This document shows positions 134-27,312 of a stretch of 39,410 nucleotides of DNA, one piece after another. The DNA comes from Terriglobales bacterium (GTDB lineage Bacteria > Acidobacteriota > Terriglobia > Terriglobales > Acidobacteriaceae): positions 1-39,410 of the forward strand of contig DATGGJ010000099.1 in the NCBI GenBank assembly GCA_035308585.1, read 5' to 3'. Under the pieces are notes generated by a model. That model was not told where the DNA came from. It saw only the letters and a program-made list of their open reading frames with translations, and made no database searches. The number at the start of each line of letters is the position of its first letter. The stretch's first letter is position 1. A program made the position numbers and the translations under genes.

Positions 134-841
134 ATGACCACGCTCAGCCGCAACGCCAGAATCGCCGGGCTCTTCTATCTCACCCTGATGACCGCGCCCT
201 TGCGCCTCGTCTACATTCCCACCAAGCTGATCGTCTCCGGCAACGCGGCCGCCACCGCTGGCAACATCGCCGCCCACCAGACGCTTTTCCGCCTGGGCAT
301 CCTCACCGACCTGTTCACCGCGGTAATGGCGATCTTCCTCACCCTGGCGCTTTACCGGCTGTTCAAGGGTGTGGACCAATTCCTGGCCGCCCTGGTTGTG
401 GCGCTCGGCGCCCTGATGGTCACCCCCATCTACTTCCTCAACACTCTCAATGACGCGGCCACGCTGCTGCTGGTGCGCGGCGCCGACTTCCTCTCCGTCT
501 TCGACAAGCCGCAGCGCGAGGCCATGGCCATGCTCTTCCTCCGCCTGCACCACCATGGCGTCGTAGTCAACGAGGTTTTCTGGGGGTTGTGGCTGCTGCC
601 TTTCGGCCTGCTGGTTTACAAATCGCGCTTCCTGCCCCGCTTCCTGGGCGTCTGGCTGGTGCTCAATTGCTTCGCCTACCTGGCGCAGAGCGTCACCGGC
701 ATCATGTGGCCGCAATACGAAGACACAGTAGCGAACTACGCCCTTCCCGTCATGTTCGGAGAGCTGGCTATCATGCTGTGGCTCATCATCATGGGAGCCA
801 AGGAGCGGCAGCCGCTGGCGGCCGCAGCCGCCAACCCGTAA
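134..841 (+). CDS. DUF4386-family integral membrane protein
   Basis: 235-aa ORF with AGGAG upstream of the ATG. It has several hydrophobic helices. The N-terminal pattern ARIAGLFYL...SGNAAATAGNIAAHQTLFRLGI is recalled as typical of DUF4386. The antisense ORF 122..715 is judged spurious. Confidence 0.7.
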   Translation: MTTLSRNARIAGLFYLTLMTAPLRLVYIPTKLIVSGNAAATAGNIAAHQTLFRLGILTDLFTAVMAIFLTLALYRLFKGVDQFLAALVVALGALMVTPIYFLNTLNDAATLLLVRGADFLSVFDKPQREAMAMLFLRLHHHGVVVNEVFWGLWLLPFGLLVYKSRFLPRFLGVWLVLNCFAYLAQSVTGIMWPQYEDTVANYALPVMFGELAIMLWLIIMGAKERQPLAAAAANP

Positions 842-4871: not shown

Positions 4872-6623
<1,752 letters not shown>

Positions 6624-6659
6624 TCACGTCGGGAACTAGCCCCCAAAAAGGACGAAAAG

Positions 6660-7340
6660 ATGGCCTCGGTACCCGAGCAGGCTGATTTCGATAACTCCTT
6701 GCGCTTGTATACCTACCGGCGCATGGTGGAGACCGGCAGGGCGCCGGCCGTGGCCACCGCCGCAAAAGAGATGGGCAGCACTGAGGCCGCGGTTCGGGCT
6801 GCTTACGCTCGCCTGAGCCACTCCCACGCCTTCATGCTCACGGAAATCGGGGAACTGTGGCGCGTGGCGCCTTTTTCCGCAATTCCCACCCCCTTTCCGG
6901 TGAAATCGGGCGGGCAAACTTACTACGCCAACTGCATCTGGGACGCTCTAGGCATTCCCGCCATGCTGGGGCAGGACGCCACCATTCCTGCCTCCTGCGC
7001 GTGTTGCAACCTGGAAATGACGCTGCAGGTGAAAGGGGGGTCGCTGCTCCCGCACGAGGGGCTGATCCATGTTGCCGTTTCGGCGCGCCGCTGGTACGAG
7101 GATGTGGTTTTCACGTGAAAAACCATTCTCCTGTTCCGGTCGGAACTGCATGTGGACCGCTGGTGCCGCCAGTGGAACCGCCAGCGGGGCGGGATCTTCT
7201 CTCTGCAGCAGGGCTGGGACTTGGCGCGCCTCTGGTACGCAGACCGCCTCAGCCCCAAGTGGCGTCCTTTCAATGCTCAGGAGGCGCAAGCCATCTTTGC
7301 CCAAGTGGGTCTGACCAGTGATTTCTGGAGCCTGGGGTAG
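6660..7340 (+). CDS. MerB-like (alkylmercury lyase family) protein with one in-frame TGA at 7116-7118 (candidate Sec codon, or a nonsense mutation)
   Basis: Track ORFs 6588..7118 and 7152..7340 are in the same frame and are separated only by a TGA plus 11 sense codons. The joined product reads ...YANCIWDALG...RRWYEDVVFT-TGA-KTILLFRSELHVDRWCRQW... The start is taken at ATG 6660 (MASVPEQ), which has an AGGA-like RBS. Confidence 0.6.
7133..7146 (+). other. Candidate SECIS-like hairpin GUUCC-GGUC-GGAAC, beginning 14 nt 3' of the in-frame UGA
   Basis: A 5-bp stem with a GGUC tetraloop was read directly. The loop occupies nt +23..+26 counted from the U of the UGA. This is a minimal helix and has not been evaluated thermodynamically. 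Confidence 0.35.
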
Positions 7341-7548
7341 CTCCGCATCAACTTACTGACCCACCACCATGCCCATTCCTCAATGCAGGACTAAAGCCCT
7401 GCTCCACACTCTGAACCCAGCGACTTGGAATAACGCAAAAAGCCGGGGGGATTACCCTCGTGACTTGGGCAAGTGCCTGATTGCACTTACCATGGTGTTG
7501 AACTGCGTACGCCGACGTGTGCCTGTCAGCTCAGGCACAAGCGCATCT

Positions 7549-7980
7549 ATGTCTTATCTGGCCAGGCTGCGGATGAAAGCACAGAGCGGCGGGAGACCGC
7601 TGTTCTACATTCTTTGTGTGCTATTGCTGATGGGGATGGCGTGGTGGCTGCTTCCGGCCCGCGGCCATTCCGGCGCGAATAACGCCAGCGGGCAATCCTC
7701 GTTCCTCAGGCCCGTCGGGCAGCGCGGTGCGGCCACGCCCCCTGCGCCCAAGCTGCAGATCAGCGACGTCCGCCAGACCGGGCAGGTGGTGGAAATCAAG
7801 GGAACCGCCGACTGCAACGCGGCCGTGATGATCAATGGCGAGCGCGCTCCGCTCATTTTTGATCACTGCGGATTCAAGCATTTCCTGCTTCTGCCTGAGG
7901 GTCCTTCGACCATCGCCGTCACCGCCCAGGGGCCCGCCGGCGGGGTGAACACTCAGTTACTAAAAGTGAATATCGAGTAA
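7549..7980 (+). CDS. Hypothetical membrane-anchored protein
   Basis: The start is chosen at MSYLARL...PLFYILCVLLLMGMAWWLL (N-terminal TM helix). The C-terminal part (about 90 aa) looks beta-rich. No family was recognised. Confidence 0.5.
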   Translation: MSYLARLRMKAQSGGRPLFYILCVLLLMGMAWWLLPARGHSGANNASGQSSFLRPVGQRGAATPPAPKLQISDVRQTGQVVEIKGTADCNAAVMINGERAPLIFDHCGFKHFLLLPEGPSTIAVTAQGPAGGVNTQLLKVNIE

Positions 7981-14117: not shown

Positions 14118-14292
14118 TGCCAACCGATGGCCGCACCCGTAACGACGCGGCTTCAATTTTGGGCAACCTTCTACTCTGGAATTTCCCTCTGATGCGCTAG
14201 GCTGCACGCCCAACGGGCCCTGCCAGTACGGTAAATCACCGGCCCGGTGGTAATCTCTCCCGGCACTTGGAATTCAAAAACGAGGAACTGTG

Positions 14293-23165: not shown

Positions 23166-23224
23166 GGGTCCCTCGCTCGCGCTCCCTGGCGAAGCACAGA
23201 CGCGCTCACTCAGGATGACATCCT
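23166..23224. repeat. CTCAGGATGAC-type REP-like element
   Basis: gggtccctcgctcgcgctccctggcgaagcacagacgcgctcactcaggatgacatcc includes the 11-nt palindrome ggatgacatcc (23213-23223). It resembles a widely dispersed bacterial intergenic repeat, judged from memory. Confidence 0.4.
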
Positions 23225-23251
23225 ATTTCTACTGCCGCTTTGAGTGCGATG

Positions 23252-24106
23252 TCACTTGCGTTTAGCGGCGAGCGCCTCCTGCAGAGCGCGGCGCGTGTAG
23301 ACCTGCGCCAGGTGGCGGCGATACTCCGCCGAGGCGTAATTGTCGCCCAAGGCCTCAACCTTATCGGCCGCATACCTGGCTGCTTCCGCGAGGGCGCTGG
23401 CCGGCTTGCCACGTAAGGCAGCTTCGACCGCGGTGGCGCGATAGGCGATTTCGCCCACGCCGGTAATGCCCACGGCCACTTCATCAATCTTTGCGTTCGA
23501 GCCGCGGACCACGACGGCAACGCCCACCACGGCGTAGCCGGAAGCGGGATGAGCAAACTTCTTGTAAACCGTTCCCGCGCCGGTAGTCTTGGGCACGCGA
23601 ATTTCGGTGATGATCTCGTCCGGGCGCAGCGCGCTGGTAAACATTCCGGTAAAGAATTCGCGCGCGGGAATCACCCGCTCGCCGGATTGGCTGGCGGTGA
23701 CAATGCGCGCGTCGAGGGCCAGAACCGCCGCCGGGTAATCGGCGGAAGGATGAGCCTGGGCGAGGCTGCCGCCGATGGTGCCGCGATTGCGCACCTGGAT
23801 GTCGCCGATATTGCCGGCAGCCTGGGCCAGCAGGGGCGAGGAAGCAAGCAGCAACTGGGAGGAAGCCACCGTGCCGTGCGTGGTGAGGGCGCCGATGCTG
23901 ATGGTATCGCCGGCATCGCGAATGTAGTCGAGCCCGCCAATGCGGCCCAGATCAATCAGCAGCGGCGGGTTGGCCAGGCGCAGCTTCATGGCGGGCAGCA
24001 GGCTATGGCCGCCGGCCAGCAGCTTGGCGTCCTCGTGCGACGCGAGCAGGCTGAGCGCTTCGTTCAGGGTCTTGGGCGATTCGTAATCGAACGATGCCGG
24101 AATCAT
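23252..24106 (-). CDS. Xanthine-dehydrogenase-family FAD-binding (medium, CoxM-like) subunit
   Basis: The start is ATG 24106, in an ATGA overlap with the large-subunit stop. LLAGGHSLLPAMKLRL and VRNRGTIGGSLA are FAD-binding motifs. The protein has no Cys residues at all. Confidence 0.88.
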   Translation of the reverse strand: MIPASFDYESPKTLNEALSLLASHEDAKLLAGGHSLLPAMKLRLANPPLLIDLGRIGGLDYIRDAGDTISIGALTTHGTVASSQLLLASSPLLAQAAGNIGDIQVRNRGTIGGSLAQAHPSADYPAAVLALDARIVTASQSGERVIPAREFFTGMFTSALRPDEIITEIRVPKTTGAGTVYKKFAHPASGYAVVGVAVVVRGSNAKIDEVAVGITGVGEIAYRATAVEAALRGKPASALAEAARYAADKVEALGDNYASAEYRRHLAQVYTRRALQEALAAKRK

Positions 24107-26520
24107 GCGGACCTCCTGGCGGTGCGGGCGGAAGATTTGGTGATTGCCGCCGGCGGCGGGACGGCGGCTTGGGCGGCGGCGATGGCGCGCCACACCCGCT
24201 CCGGTTTGAGCGGCATATCAATGTTGGTGATACCAAGCGGCGCCAGCGCATCGCACACCGCATTCACCACGCAAGGCGTGGAGGCAATGGTGCCGGCCTC
24301 GCCCACCCCTTTCACGCCCATGGGATTCACCGGTGTGGGCGTGACCGTGCGGTCAAGGATGAACTCGGGAATGTGAATTGCTTTAGGGACGGCATAATCC
24401 ATTAGCGAGCCGGTGACCGGCTGGCCGTCCTCGTTGTAAACCATTTCCTCGTACATGGCCTGGCTCAAGCCCTGGGCGATGCCGCCCTGCACCTGGCCAT
24501 CCACCAGCAGGGGATTGATGACGTTGCCGCAGTCGTCTACGGCAACATACTTCTCAATTTTGGTTTCACCGGTCTCCGCGTCCACCTCCACCGCGCAGAT
24601 GTGGGTGCCGAAGGGGAAGGTGAAGTTGGAAGGTTCGAAGAAATGGGTGGCTTCCATGCCCGGCTCGAAGCCGGCAGGAATGCTGCGGGCGGTGTAGGCG
24701 GCCAGGATGACCTCGCCCCAGGACATGGACTTCTTGGGATTGCCCTTTACGCCGACCCGGCCATGAGCAATCACGATGTCTGCGGCCTTGGCGCCGAGCA
24801 AATGCGCGGCCAGGGTAGCGATCTTGGCTTTCAGTTTCTGAACGGCATAGTAGATGGCGGTGCCGCCCACGGCGGTGCCCCGGCTGCCGAAGGTGCCGAT
24901 TCCATAGGGCACAGCCAGCGTGTCGCCGTGAATGACGGTGATGTCTTCTGGGCTGATGCCGAACTGGTCGGCCACCAGTTGCGCGAAGGTGGTTTCCTGA
25001 CCCTGTCCGTGCGGCGAAGCCCCGGTCAGCACAGTAACCTTGCCGGTCGGCTCAATGCGCACGGTGCCGCTTTCCCATCCGCCGGCGGGCGTGGCCGCCG
25101 AGGGCCCAATGGCGCAGATCTCCACGTAGGTGGAAACGCCCACGCCGTAGTACTTGCCCTGCTTCCAGCCGGCTTTCTGGCGGGCGCGCAGCTTGTCATA
25201 ACCGGCAAGCTGCAGGGCGCGTTTCAGGCTCTGCTGGTAATTGGCGGAGTCGTAAGTTAGGCCGGCGGCGGTGGTGAAGGGAAATTCCCTGGGCTGGGGA
25301 AAGTTTTTGCTGCGGAACCTGGCCGCATCCAGGTTGAGTTCACGGGCGGCGCAGTCCATGATGCGCTCGATATCGTAGGCGGCTTCGGGCCGGCCGGCGC
25401 CGCGGTAGGCGTCGGTGGACATCTTGTTGGTGAAGACGCCGATGATTTCGCAGTCGAAGGCGGGAATCTTGTAGCAACCCGGCAGCATGAGCGCGGTGAG
25501 CTGCGGAATGAGCGGCGTGAGCAGTTGGTGGTAGGCGCCCATGTCGGCCAGGACTTTGGCGCGCAGGCCGAGAATGGTGCCGTCCTTCTTGAGCGCGAGT
25601 TCGAGGTAGTTGATGGTGTCGCGGCCGTGAATGGTCACCAGCAGGCTTTCCCGGCGGGTCTCCGTCCACTTGACCGGGCGGCCCAGCTTCATGGCCAGCC
25701 AGGGAACCACGCCATCCTCGGCGTAGACGTTGAGCTTGCTGCCGAAGCCGCCGCCCACTTCGGGAGCGATGACGCGCACCGCAGTTTCCGGCAGGCCGAC
25801 CATAATCGCTACCTGGGTCTTGAGCAGATGGGGAATCTGAGTGGAGGCCCAGATGGTGAGCCGGTTTTCGCCGGGCAGATATTCGGCGACGATGGCACGC
25901 GGTTCCATGGCGGTCGGCGCCACACGCTGGTTCAGCAGACGGACCTTGACCACGCGGTCGGCTTTCTTAAGGGCGGCGTTGATGTCGCCACTCTTCATGG
26001 AGTGAGTGAAAGCCTTGTTGCTGCCGAAGTCCTGGTAGATAAGAGCACTGTCTTTTTCCAGCGCTTTCTCCATGTCCAGCACGACGGGAAGGGGCTCGTA
26101 ATCCACGGCGACCATTTCGGCGGCATCGCGGGCGGTGTAGGGGTCCTCGGCGACCACGGCGGCCACCGGTTCACCCACGTAGCGAACGTGCCCCTTGGCC
26201 AGTGCCGGGTGGGGAGGAACCTTGAGGTCGGGCATCTGCATGGCGCAGGGAATCATGCCCAAGCCTTCCAAGTCGGCCGAGGTTACCACCGCCAGGACGC
26301 CGGGATGGGAGCGTGCGGCATCCGCATTGATGGACAGAATGCGGGCGTGGGCGTGCGGCGAGCGCACGAAGACGCAGTGCGCCAGGTTCGGCAGCTTGAT
26401 ATCGTCGGTGTAGTGGCTGATGCCGCGCACCAGGCGCGGGTCCTCTTTGCGCTTGAAGCGCTTGCCTACCCACTGCCCGTTGCTCTTAGCTTTGCCGTTG
26501 CTCTTTCCATTGCTGGCCAT
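24103..26520 (-). CDS. Xanthine-dehydrogenase-family molybdopterin-binding large subunit (form-II CoxL-like)
   Basis: 805 aa. It carries the AYRGAGR active-site loop (in ...MSTDAYRGAGRPEAAY...). GAGGTG lies upstream of the start. Confidence 0.92.
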   Translation of the reverse strand: MASNGKSNGKAKSNGQWVGKRFKRKEDPRLVRGISHYTDDIKLPNLAHCVFVRSPHAHARILSINADAARSHPGVLAVVTSADLEGLGMIPCAMQMPDLKVPPHPALAKGHVRYVGEPVAAVVAEDPYTARDAAEMVAVDYEPLPVVLDMEKALEKDSALIYQDFGSNKAFTHSMKSGDINAALKKADRVVKVRLLNQRVAPTAMEPRAIVAEYLPGENRLTIWASTQIPHLLKTQVAIMVGLPETAVRVIAPEVGGGFGSKLNVYAEDGVVPWLAMKLGRPVKWTETRRESLLVTIHGRDTINYLELALKKDGTILGLRAKVLADMGAYHQLLTPLIPQLTALMLPGCYKIPAFDCEIIGVFTNKMSTDAYRGAGRPEAAYDIERIMDCAARELNLDAARFRSKNFPQPREFPFTTAAGLTYDSANYQQSLKRALQLAGYDKLRARQKAGWKQGKYYGVGVSTYVEICAIGPSAATPAGGWESGTVRIEPTGKVTVLTGASPHGQGQETTFAQLVADQFGISPEDITVIHGDTLAVPYGIGTFGSRGTAVGGTAIYYAVQKLKAKIATLAAHLLGAKAADIVIAHGRVGVKGNPKKSMSWGEVILAAYTARSIPAGFEPGMEATHFFEPSNFTFPFGTHICAVEVDAETGETKIEKYVAVDDCGNVINPLLVDGQVQGGIAQGLSQAMYEEMVYNEDGQPVTGSLMDYAVPKAIHIPEFILDRTVTPTPVNPMGVKGVGEAGTIASTPCVVNAVCDALAPLGITNIDMPLKPERVWRAIAAAQAAVPPPAAITKSSARTARRSA

Positions 26521-26532
26521 GCATCACCTCGC

Positions 26533-27033
26533 TCAGTCAGCGGCGCGGGCTGCCGCGCGCTGGCGCTGGTTCATCTTGCGGGAGGCCGCTTTCACGGCGT
26601 TGACGATGTGCTGGTAGCCGGTGCAGCGGCAGAGATTGCCCCCTATGCCGTCGCGGATCTCCTCTTCGGTGGGGGAAGCGTTCTGCTGCAGCAGGTCATG
26701 GGCGCACAGGATCATGCCCGGGGTGCAGTAGCCGCACTGCAAGCCGTGCTCCTCCCAGAACGCCTCCTGGATGGGATGCAGGTTCTCGCTCGCTGCCAGC
26801 CCTTCAATAGTGGTGACGGAGCGGCCGTCGGCTTGCACCGCCAGCACGGTGCAGGACTTCACCGCCATGCCATCGAGCAGCACGGTGCAGGCGCCGCACA
26901 GCGAGGTCTCGCAGCCGATGTGAGTTCCGGTAAGCCCGGCCACTTCACGCAGGAAATGAACCAGCAGCAGGCGAGGCTCGACTTCAGCGCGGTGCTCAGC
27001 GCCGTTGATGACGATGCGGACGTTCTTCTTCAT
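26533..27033 (-). CDS. (2Fe-2S)-binding small subunit (CoxS-like)
   Basis: The start is ATG 27033 ([12 protein letters not shown]). [16 protein letters not shown] and CGYCTPGMI...CRCTGY are the two [2Fe-2S] motifs. Confidence 0.9.
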
Positions 27034-27126
27034 AAGGCCCCCAAGGGAAAGAGAAGGTATGCAGGGGTGCGGACTAACGGGCGCCAACGATAGCAAAATG
27101 CGAGGACCATTTACAAGTCGGCTGGC

Positions 27127-27144
27127 TGCACTGAAATCAGTGCA
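27127..27144. promoter_or_regulatory. Perfect palindrome TGCACTG-AAAT-CAGTGCA upstream of coxS-like operon
   Basis: A 7-bp inverted repeat with a 4-nt spacer lies about 95 nt upstream of the coxS-like start, in the divergent spacer shared with the TonB-dependent receptor. Confidence 0.35.
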
Positions 27145-27312
27145 CACTGGCGCGGGATCACATGGCGAGCCGGCCTCGGAATAAGGGGTGCCTGGGCCTG
27201 CCTAATGTCCTGTAGGGCATACTCTTTTTAAGGTTTCCTTAATCTGCGCCGGAGTACCCTCCCCCGCAGATTCTCACCTGAATTTCTGGCCAAACCCTTA
27301 AGGAGTTGCCCA

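Follow-up and report, generated by a model that had tools for sequence, protein, structure and literature searches.

Does an in-frame TGA inside a gene for a protein related to the alkylmercury lyase MerB end that protein, or is it read as selenocysteine (Sec)? This question is raised by a gene on contig DATGGJ010000099.1 of a Terriglobales bacterium (Acidobacteriota; assembly GCA_035308585.1), whose 39,410 nucleotides we analyzed in full and refer to as the window. The reading frame of this gene begins with an ATG at 6660, meets the TGA at codon 153 (7116-7118), and continues open in the same frame for 73 codons up to a terminal TAG at 7338-7340. The open reading frame (ORF) track of the window presents this frame as two ORFs, 6588-7118 and 7152-7340, the second beginning with GTG, with a gap that consists of the TGA and 11 sense codons (7119-7151). 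A first-pass annotation, made from the sequence alone, had joined the two into a candidate selenoprotein, and the coordinates it gave, the common frame, the CIWD motif, the spacing of 61 residues between the cysteine of that motif (C92) and the TGA codon, and the position of a hairpin downstream were all reproduced from the window sequence. We conclude, with a probability of roughly 0.9, that the UGA at 7116-7118 encodes Sec and that 6660-7340 is predicted to be a single gene whose product is a MerB-superfamily selenoprotein of 226 residues. We favor this reading because Sec and Cys are paired at the same position among homologues, the TGA is conserved, the codons downstream of it are under selection, a covarying hairpin without a counterpart in the Cys forms follows it, and TGA otherwise serves as a normal stop codon.

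To place the read-through product in a protein family, we compared it with family profiles and solved structures. The Pfam MerB model (PF03243) matched with 97.7 bits (cut-off 27; E = 6.5e-28) over residues 72-193, a stretch that crosses the TGA and covers profile positions 1-125 of 126. By sequence, the best relative of solved structure was MerB2 (PDB 5C17), with U153 aligned to the Cys of 'TCKQIHYF' and C92 to the Cys of 'AWCAIS'. In the comparison with E. coli MerB through the family profile, 'yygnCiWdal' was aligned to 'lyaWCaLDtl', which places C92 and D95 on Cys96 and Asp99, and C113 on Cys117. A profile search of the PDB stopped short of the Sec column, where most of the alignment rows were truncated. 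Homology to the C-termini of MerB2 and of SaoL, a MerB-like selenoprotein considered below, runs on through the 3' part of the gene. We also modeled a natural Cys homologue, P0056, with AlphaFold2 (mean predicted local distance difference test [pLDDT] score 79, predicted template modeling [pTM] score 0.65); in a Foldseek search of the PDB with this model, the top 11 matches were all MerB or MerB2 (E 3e-9 to 2e-7, template modeling [TM] score 0.4-0.5), and the next match had an E value above 0.05.

The columns of C92 and D95 were invariant in two homologue alignments (A1 and A3). In more distant full-length homologues, the D95 column held Cys in 29 of 63, that is, C-x-x-C rather than C-x-x-D, which suggests that these proteins represent a further active-site variant in the family. 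The Sec column itself was Cys in 55 of the 63 full-length homologues and aligned with the Cys of MerB2, in agreement with the earlier proposal that the TGA falls where the second catalytic Cys is expected. As judged from these alignments, the MerB catalytic triad is conserved as C92, D95, and a predicted U153, with Sec replacing the second Cys.

How the homologues are represented in protein databases was informative about the TGA. A search of 5.8 billion proteins returned 554 homologues, and the database entries were almost all truncated: among the best 120 (clusters at 90% identity), 116 were 147-174 amino acids long with a query coverage of only 62-67%, and the truncated proteins that we aligned or inspected stop at one column, after ...VVFT. 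Homologues in this search that were sourced from NCBI were cut at 150-154 residues, and those that we looked up carried no selenoprotein name. An exhaustive search of 50%-identity representatives, for which a Cys form was used as the query and the top 150 clusters were inspected, gave 89 truncated proteins, mostly ending in [IVL]-x-[FY]-[TNS], and 60 full-length ones. The few full-length homologues in the search of 5.8 billion proteins carry Cys at the Sec column, among them P0056 and P0067 (VVFTCKTILLFR), in both of which this codon is TGC at the DNA level. In all members seen, U is preceded by T, N, S, or A.

To read the codon itself in other taxa, we scanned a single GTDB genome for each species; a relative is encoded in 476 of them, and we examined the best 80 loci. 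These came from Terriglobales and other Terriglobia, Blastocatellia/Pyrinomonadaceae, Vicinamibacterales, Thermoanaerobaculia, Actinomycetota, Chloroflexota, and Gemmatimonadota. A census of the window, five near-identical contigs, and 78 species-level genomes (n = 84) showed TGA in every one of the 84 sequences in which the column could be located, at identities of 42-84% among the relatives, so the TGA is shared across several phyla. One of the loci examined (L011; contig JBLMXE010000003.1, 5.8 kb) is labeled as a Chlamydiota metagenome-assembled genome (MAG), and its gene is 77% identical to the Terriglobales gene; this is probably a mis-binned acidobacterial contig.

A short way downstream of the TGA lies the hairpin GUUCC-GGUC-GGAAC (7133-7146), in which 7133-7137 and 7142-7146 form a perfect 5-bp stem around a loop at 7138-7141. 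With the U of the UGA counted as +1, the GGUC loop occupies +23 to +26, and the spacing between UGA and loop is 19 nt. When the segment was folded with ViennaRNA, this GGUC-looped stem was the minimum-free-energy (MFE) structure. We scanned both strands of the 39.4-kb window for a TGA followed after 16-37 nt by a stem of at least 5 bp with a GGTC loop and recovered this site only, which argues that the hairpin is more than a chance occurrence. The bacterial selenocysteine insertion sequence (bSECIS) model specifies a loop of 3-9 nt with G at its first two positions, a stem of 4-16 bp, a spacing of 16-37 nt, and an MFE of at most -7.5 kcal/mol (PMC13188914). The window hairpin lies within these bounds, with the 4-nt loop GGUC, a stem of 5 bp (7 bp in relatives), and the 19-nt spacing; folded within 46 nt of sequence it reaches -9.9 kcal/mol, and 69 of the 78 relatives reach an MFE of -7.5 kcal/mol or below. 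No SECIS family matched in Rfam, either for the window at gathering score or for 7000-7300 under permissive settings, although Rfam may hold no fitting model. Just past the SECIS-like hairpin, the R-W-C-R-Q-W codons contain another stable one, which has a stem of 8 bp (7157-7175, forward strand).

To ask if the hairpin is maintained as an RNA structure, we aligned 78 distinct sequences without gaps from the TGA and compared columns 16-22 with columns 27-33. These columns were paired in 96.7% of cells, and the top four stem pairs were unbroken in all 78 sequences. Pairing was retained through exchanges of both partners: at pair 18-31, 42 sequences have G-C and 34 have C-G, and at pair 22-27, C-G (64 sequences) alternates with U-A (14). 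The observed covariation score was not attained by any of 500 shuffles, a shift of the register by 1-3 columns reduced pairing to 36-51%, and RNAalifold recovered the same core independently. The full GGUC loop was present in 76 of the 78 sequences, the exceptions being AGUC and GGGC, with each loop position conserved in 77 or 78. Synonymous change is also constrained here, as the proportion of synonymous differences (pS) was lowered to 0.48 in the 11 hairpin codons versus 0.71-0.72 elsewhere. In the Cys-type homologues, the peptide LLFR is kept, the codon is TGC, the codons that follow are different, and the hairpin is gone.

One group of loci shows an exchange in this stem that touches the protein as well. 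In L053-L081 (Blastocatellia/Pyrinomonadaceae and some Chloroflexota), a change of CGG to UGG, which replaces Arg with Trp, is always paired with a synonymous change of UCG to UCA. As the paired changes keep the top stem pair, RNA pairing is preserved at the expense of the protein, and the Arg-to-Trp change appears to be driven by RNA structure. This pairing in the Blastocatellia offers a clean example of an RNA structure shaping a protein sequence.

Four other explanations of the TGA were weighed against decoding as Sec. The one that survives best, which we still regard as quite improbable, is that the UGA is read through by other means, either through insertion of Trp, Cys, Arg, or Gly by a near-cognate or suppressor tRNA, for which the hairpin would be no more than a generic stimulator, or by a code in which TGA has a sense meaning. 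This explanation would account for the lack of visible Sec machinery in the window, described below, and for the Trp that some gene callers placed at the codon, as in P0001. However, TGA is the ordinary stop of 7 of the 19 other Pfam-supported window genes and the terminal stop of the MerB-like gene itself in 47 of the 78 loci, observations that led us to reject a genome-wide change of code. In addition, the column is Cys in homologues that lack the TGA, the classic Sec/Cys pair, and the hairpin carries the GGUC loop of the E. coli fdhF SECIS at an almost equal distance from the UGA. Finally, one TGA-containing orthologue (L082), from an Acidobacteriaceae MAG, has a tRNA-Sec gene with anticodon TCA about 9 kb away, at 14143-14239 on the reverse strand of its contig; no selA or selB was recognized among the ORFs adjoining it. 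In the same phylum, the cultured Occallatibacter riparius is listed as Sec-utilizing, with three selenoproteins. We considered P0001 as a natural Trp variant and rejected it: the DNA at that codon is TGA, and the Trp is an artefact of the gene caller, the sequence (L093, 140-820) being a short contig translated with a code in which TGA is Trp. Database proteins P0123 and P0132 likewise show W at the Sec position.

A second explanation takes the TGA as a genuine stop codon and divides the locus into a 152-residue protein corresponding to the N-terminal part of MerB and a C-terminal peptide that is separately initiated or not made at all. Gene callers annotate the locus in this way, and most relatives have an in-frame ATG 6 nt past the TGA at which such a peptide could begin. 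In the window and its closest relatives, however, ATT or ATC replaces that ATG, and the next candidate start, at alignment columns 37-39, is not conserved. The peptide that follows the TGA is strongly conserved as [KRAS]-T-M-L-L-F-[RW]-S-E-x-H-[VI]-x-[RK]-W, and the codons that precede any start (K/R-T-M/I-L-L-F-R-S-E) encode the best-conserved peptide of the gene. The frame is unshifted in all 78 loci, the Cys homologues are single polypeptides, and the product of a split gene would lack the catalytic residue itself. With these observations, a split gene is very improbable.

We attach even less weight to a pseudogene, in which a nonsense mutation would recently have turned TGC or TGT of a Cys-type gene into TGA and left the 3' part to decay. 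A single base change would be enough, and Cys-type homologues with TGC exist, but the presence of TGA in all 84 sequences across several phyla is difficult to reconcile with a recent mutation, and identities of 42-84% exclude the relatives as assembly chimeras of one sequence. Nor does the 3' part show decay. In 77 of 78 loci, the frame beyond the TGA extends over 73-89 codons, no additional stop or frameshift is present, and the ratio of nonsynonymous to synonymous differences (pN/pS) is 0.44 downstream versus 0.41 upstream of the TGA, at a pS of about 0.7 that is near saturation. Because the downstream ratio equals the upstream value, we consider the 3' part to be translated, as the first-pass annotation had supposed from its intact appearance. 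The remaining explanation, an error of sequencing or assembly at the TGA of this contig, can be dismissed, as the identical 152-residue N-terminal product is found on eight contigs, all six of these that were read as DNA have the TGA and come from six different metagenome samples (JGI, ENA, Logan), and every orthologue has it too; both alternatives named by the earlier annotation, nonsense mutation and sequencing error, are therefore effectively excluded.

Several observations weigh against decoding as Sec or against the function that we propose below. First, we found no selA, selB, selC, or selD in the 39-kb window by ARAGORN, Pfam scans of 20 ORFs, or tblastn: ARAGORN reported no tRNA in the window, the Pfam scans of the 20 window ORFs showed no sel or mer genes, and tblastn with E. 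coli SelA and SelD queries gave no match in the window or across 1.3 Mb of flanking sequence, a weak test given that linkage is not expected. The absence of sel genes is what one expects of 39 kb when the whole genome measures several megabases, and it favors neither side. Second, the bare hairpin of the window, with its 5-bp perfect stem, reaches only -5.9 kcal/mol and is weaker than that of most relatives. The codon after GAA is CUG in the window versus CAG or GAG in most relatives, which places a U.U at the second of seven stem pairs; in the near-identical contigs with CAG, the bare hairpin reaches -9.6 kcal/mol. Third, the compensatory changes are common to whole clades and so represent few independent events. 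Fourth, the pLDDT of the P0056 model falls below 50 at residues 156-161, around the Cys/Sec site. Fifth, there is no mer operon (merA, merR, merT, merP) and no other metal-handling gene near the gene.

If the UGA is decoded as Sec, the following mechanism can be envisaged. The hairpin, which starts 12-14 nt past the UGA, would display its GGUC tetraloop 19 nt downstream and recruit SelB with Sec-tRNA(Sec) to the ribosome. Decoding of the UGA would then place Sec153 at the position of the second catalytic Cys. In the folded enzyme, Cys92 and the Sec153 selenolate, which takes the place of a thiolate, would bind the metal between them, and Asp95 would act as the proton donor in a MerB-like protonolysis of the carbon-metal bond.

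From its predicted active site, the protein is most likely an organometal lyase that cleaves the bond between carbon and metal by protonolysis, and organomercurials are the substrate to assume by default. We give the specific assignment as an organomercurial lyase about even odds and go no higher because no mer genes lie nearby. The NCBIfam MerB equivalogs NF009710 and NF033555 both failed (38 bits against a cut-off of 193, and 31 against 200). Around the gene lie housekeeping genes such as pyrG, kdsA, and a split transketolase, together with a peptidase, ahcY, a PEP carboxylase, and similar genes. When we clustered the neighborhoods of the 78 loci, we recovered only a synteny that extends across Terriglobia (the downstream hypothetical gene, pyrG, kdsA, ppc, rodZ, and metK), with no functional partner and no recurrent metal-related cluster. 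That hypothetical gene (7369-7980, forward strand) lies directly 3' of the selenoprotein gene and holds the same position in 28 Terriglobia loci. It matches no significant Pfam family, with Glucodextran_B below threshold only, and may be co-transcribed with the selenoprotein gene.

Table 1. Positions of the proposed MerB-family selenoprotein gene and its parts in the window.
Feature	Position	Strand	Basis
Complete predicted selenoprotein gene, 226 codons including Sec153, MerB family (PF03243)	6660-7340	+	Translation, Pfam, layout of homologues
N-terminal 152 codons; the database form, a truncated 'alkylmercury lyase-like' protein	6660-7115	+	P0002 (152 aa) identical
C92-I-W-D95 (C-x-x-D), counterpart of MerB Cys96 and Asp99 (first metal ligand, proton donor)	6933-6944	+	Alignments, family profile
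C113-A-C-C116, CxxC motif; C113 is the counterpart of MerB Cys117	6996-7007	+	Alignments
UGA, predicted selenocysteine U153, at the second catalytic Cys position (MerB Cys159; Cys of TCK in MerB2)	7116-7118	+	Alignments
C-terminal 73 codons; their translation depends on decoding of the UGA	7119-7337	+	Open frame, pN/pS, MerB2/SaoL homology
SECIS-like hairpin CUGUUCC-GGUC-GGAACUG	7131-7148	+	Folding, covariation over 78 sequences

Other features of the window and of related loci were noted in passing. The Rfam RNA CyVA-1 (RF02965) is matched at 2762-2838 on the forward strand, above its gathering score (48-51 bits across loci against 41.4), and occupies the same syntenic position, just 3' of PilZ/kdsA genes, in four related Terriglobales loci (L001, 3034-3110; L007, 2637-2713; L009, 3314-3390; L087, 7056-7132). 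Upstream of a ribonucleotide reductase gene, locus L087 also has a match to the Rfam Acido-Lenti-1 RNA (174-222, reverse strand; 39.9 bits against 37). The reverse strand of the window carries, at 23206-27147, a molybdenum-hydroxylase-type cluster from the xanthine or CO dehydrogenase family; it includes genes for a MoCoBD large subunit and a [2Fe-2S] subunit and is consistent with an aerobic lifestyle.

The way in which these genes are currently recorded has practical consequences. No NCBIfam model covers this clade, and annotation pipelines will therefore keep truncating its members. Any merB screen that asks the called protein for both catalytic cysteines would overlook these genes. If the enzymes act on methylmercury, soils rich in Acidobacteria have a greater potential for demethylation than is now estimated.

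We compared the window gene with three known systems. The first is the SECIS of E. coli fdhF, a 46-nt segment that we found in 5419 of 5426 E. coli genomes, within the gene of the Sec-containing formate dehydrogenase H. Both elements are intra-coding hairpins just after a UGA with a GGUC apical loop, at +22 to +25 in fdhF versus +23 to +26 here; the fdhF position had been given in the first-pass annotation, and the genome search and folding confirmed it. The elements differ in that the window hairpin is a plain helix of 5-7 bp, with no bulged U predicted and a shorter lower stem. The second system is canonical MerB (E. coli plasmid R831b, PDB 3F0P), from which the window protein differs by the predicted Sec in place of the second catalytic Cys and by an extra CxxC motif.

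The third and closest system is SaoL (NF040728), a MerB-like organometallic lyase and selenoprotein with a C-U motif in which Sec162 is structurally aligned to MerB Cys159, and whose gene is part of the nine-gene SAO operon found in strict anaerobes among Firmicutes, spirochaetes, and deltaproteobacteria (Haft & Gwadz 2023 J Bacteriol; bioRxiv 10.1101/2022.07.06.499078). Previously, it had been stated in the first-pass annotation that no such family was known to be described. Its proposal of a Sec-containing MerB-like lyase is supported by all of the tests that we ran, but the claim to a first description falls with SaoL, published in 2022/2023. Reviews of selenoproteomes also list an 'Alkylmercury lyase MerB-like protein' (PMC9312934, PMC13188914), and the catalogued protein of this name, WP_238493467.1, is SaoL, with 203 bits on NF040728 in our positive control. 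SaoL was the only MerB-like selenoprotein in the literature that we searched, which took in the deep-Sep and BSepDB papers but did not extend to the BSepDB database itself or Haft & Tolstoy 2025, so prior cataloguing is possible; the main texts of GOS 2008 and Peng 2016 do not mention MerB. Homology-based catalogues may already hold these genes under 'MerB-like'.

The window protein and SaoL are alike in several respects. Both are members of PF03243, BLASTP places the U of the window protein on that of SaoL, and both keep the C-x-x-D motif. Each has a CxxC about 20 residues past the first catalytic Cys (SSCIEC in SaoL) that canonical MerB lacks, and the database entries of both are cut at the UGA. 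In contrast, the window protein is 23% identical to SaoL (two SaoL sequences compared) and scores 39 bits on NF040728 against a cut-off of 140. This clade has T, N, S, or A before U where SaoL has C-U, and there is no nine-gene SAO neighborhood, ABC transporter, or SaoC/T/E-like gene near the window gene. As the NF040728 model failed and both the C-U motif and the gene context differ, we rejected the window protein as a SaoL. The clade is found in soil Acidobacteriota, Actinomycetota, and Chloroflexota, and it adds a widespread selenoprotein to phyla that are mostly of soil, whereas SaoL, the other known Sec-containing MerB-like protein, occurs only in anaerobes.

Overall, this widespread, SAO-independent clade with its T-U motif appears to be an unrecognized variant of the known Sec-MerB concept, consistently mis-annotated as a 150-residue fragment. 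We propose only tentatively, and with distinctly less confidence, that it is a large unrecognized SAO-independent Sec-MerB clade whose members would act as stand-alone Sec-dependent organometal lyases, possibly methylmercury lyases, in soil Acidobacteriota, Actinomycetota, and Chloroflexota. Next to SaoL, the clade would be a second lineage of MerB in which Sec occupies this catalytic position; if true, that Sec has replaced Cys at this site in two lineages with only 23% identity points to a specific advantage of selenium in handling the metal.

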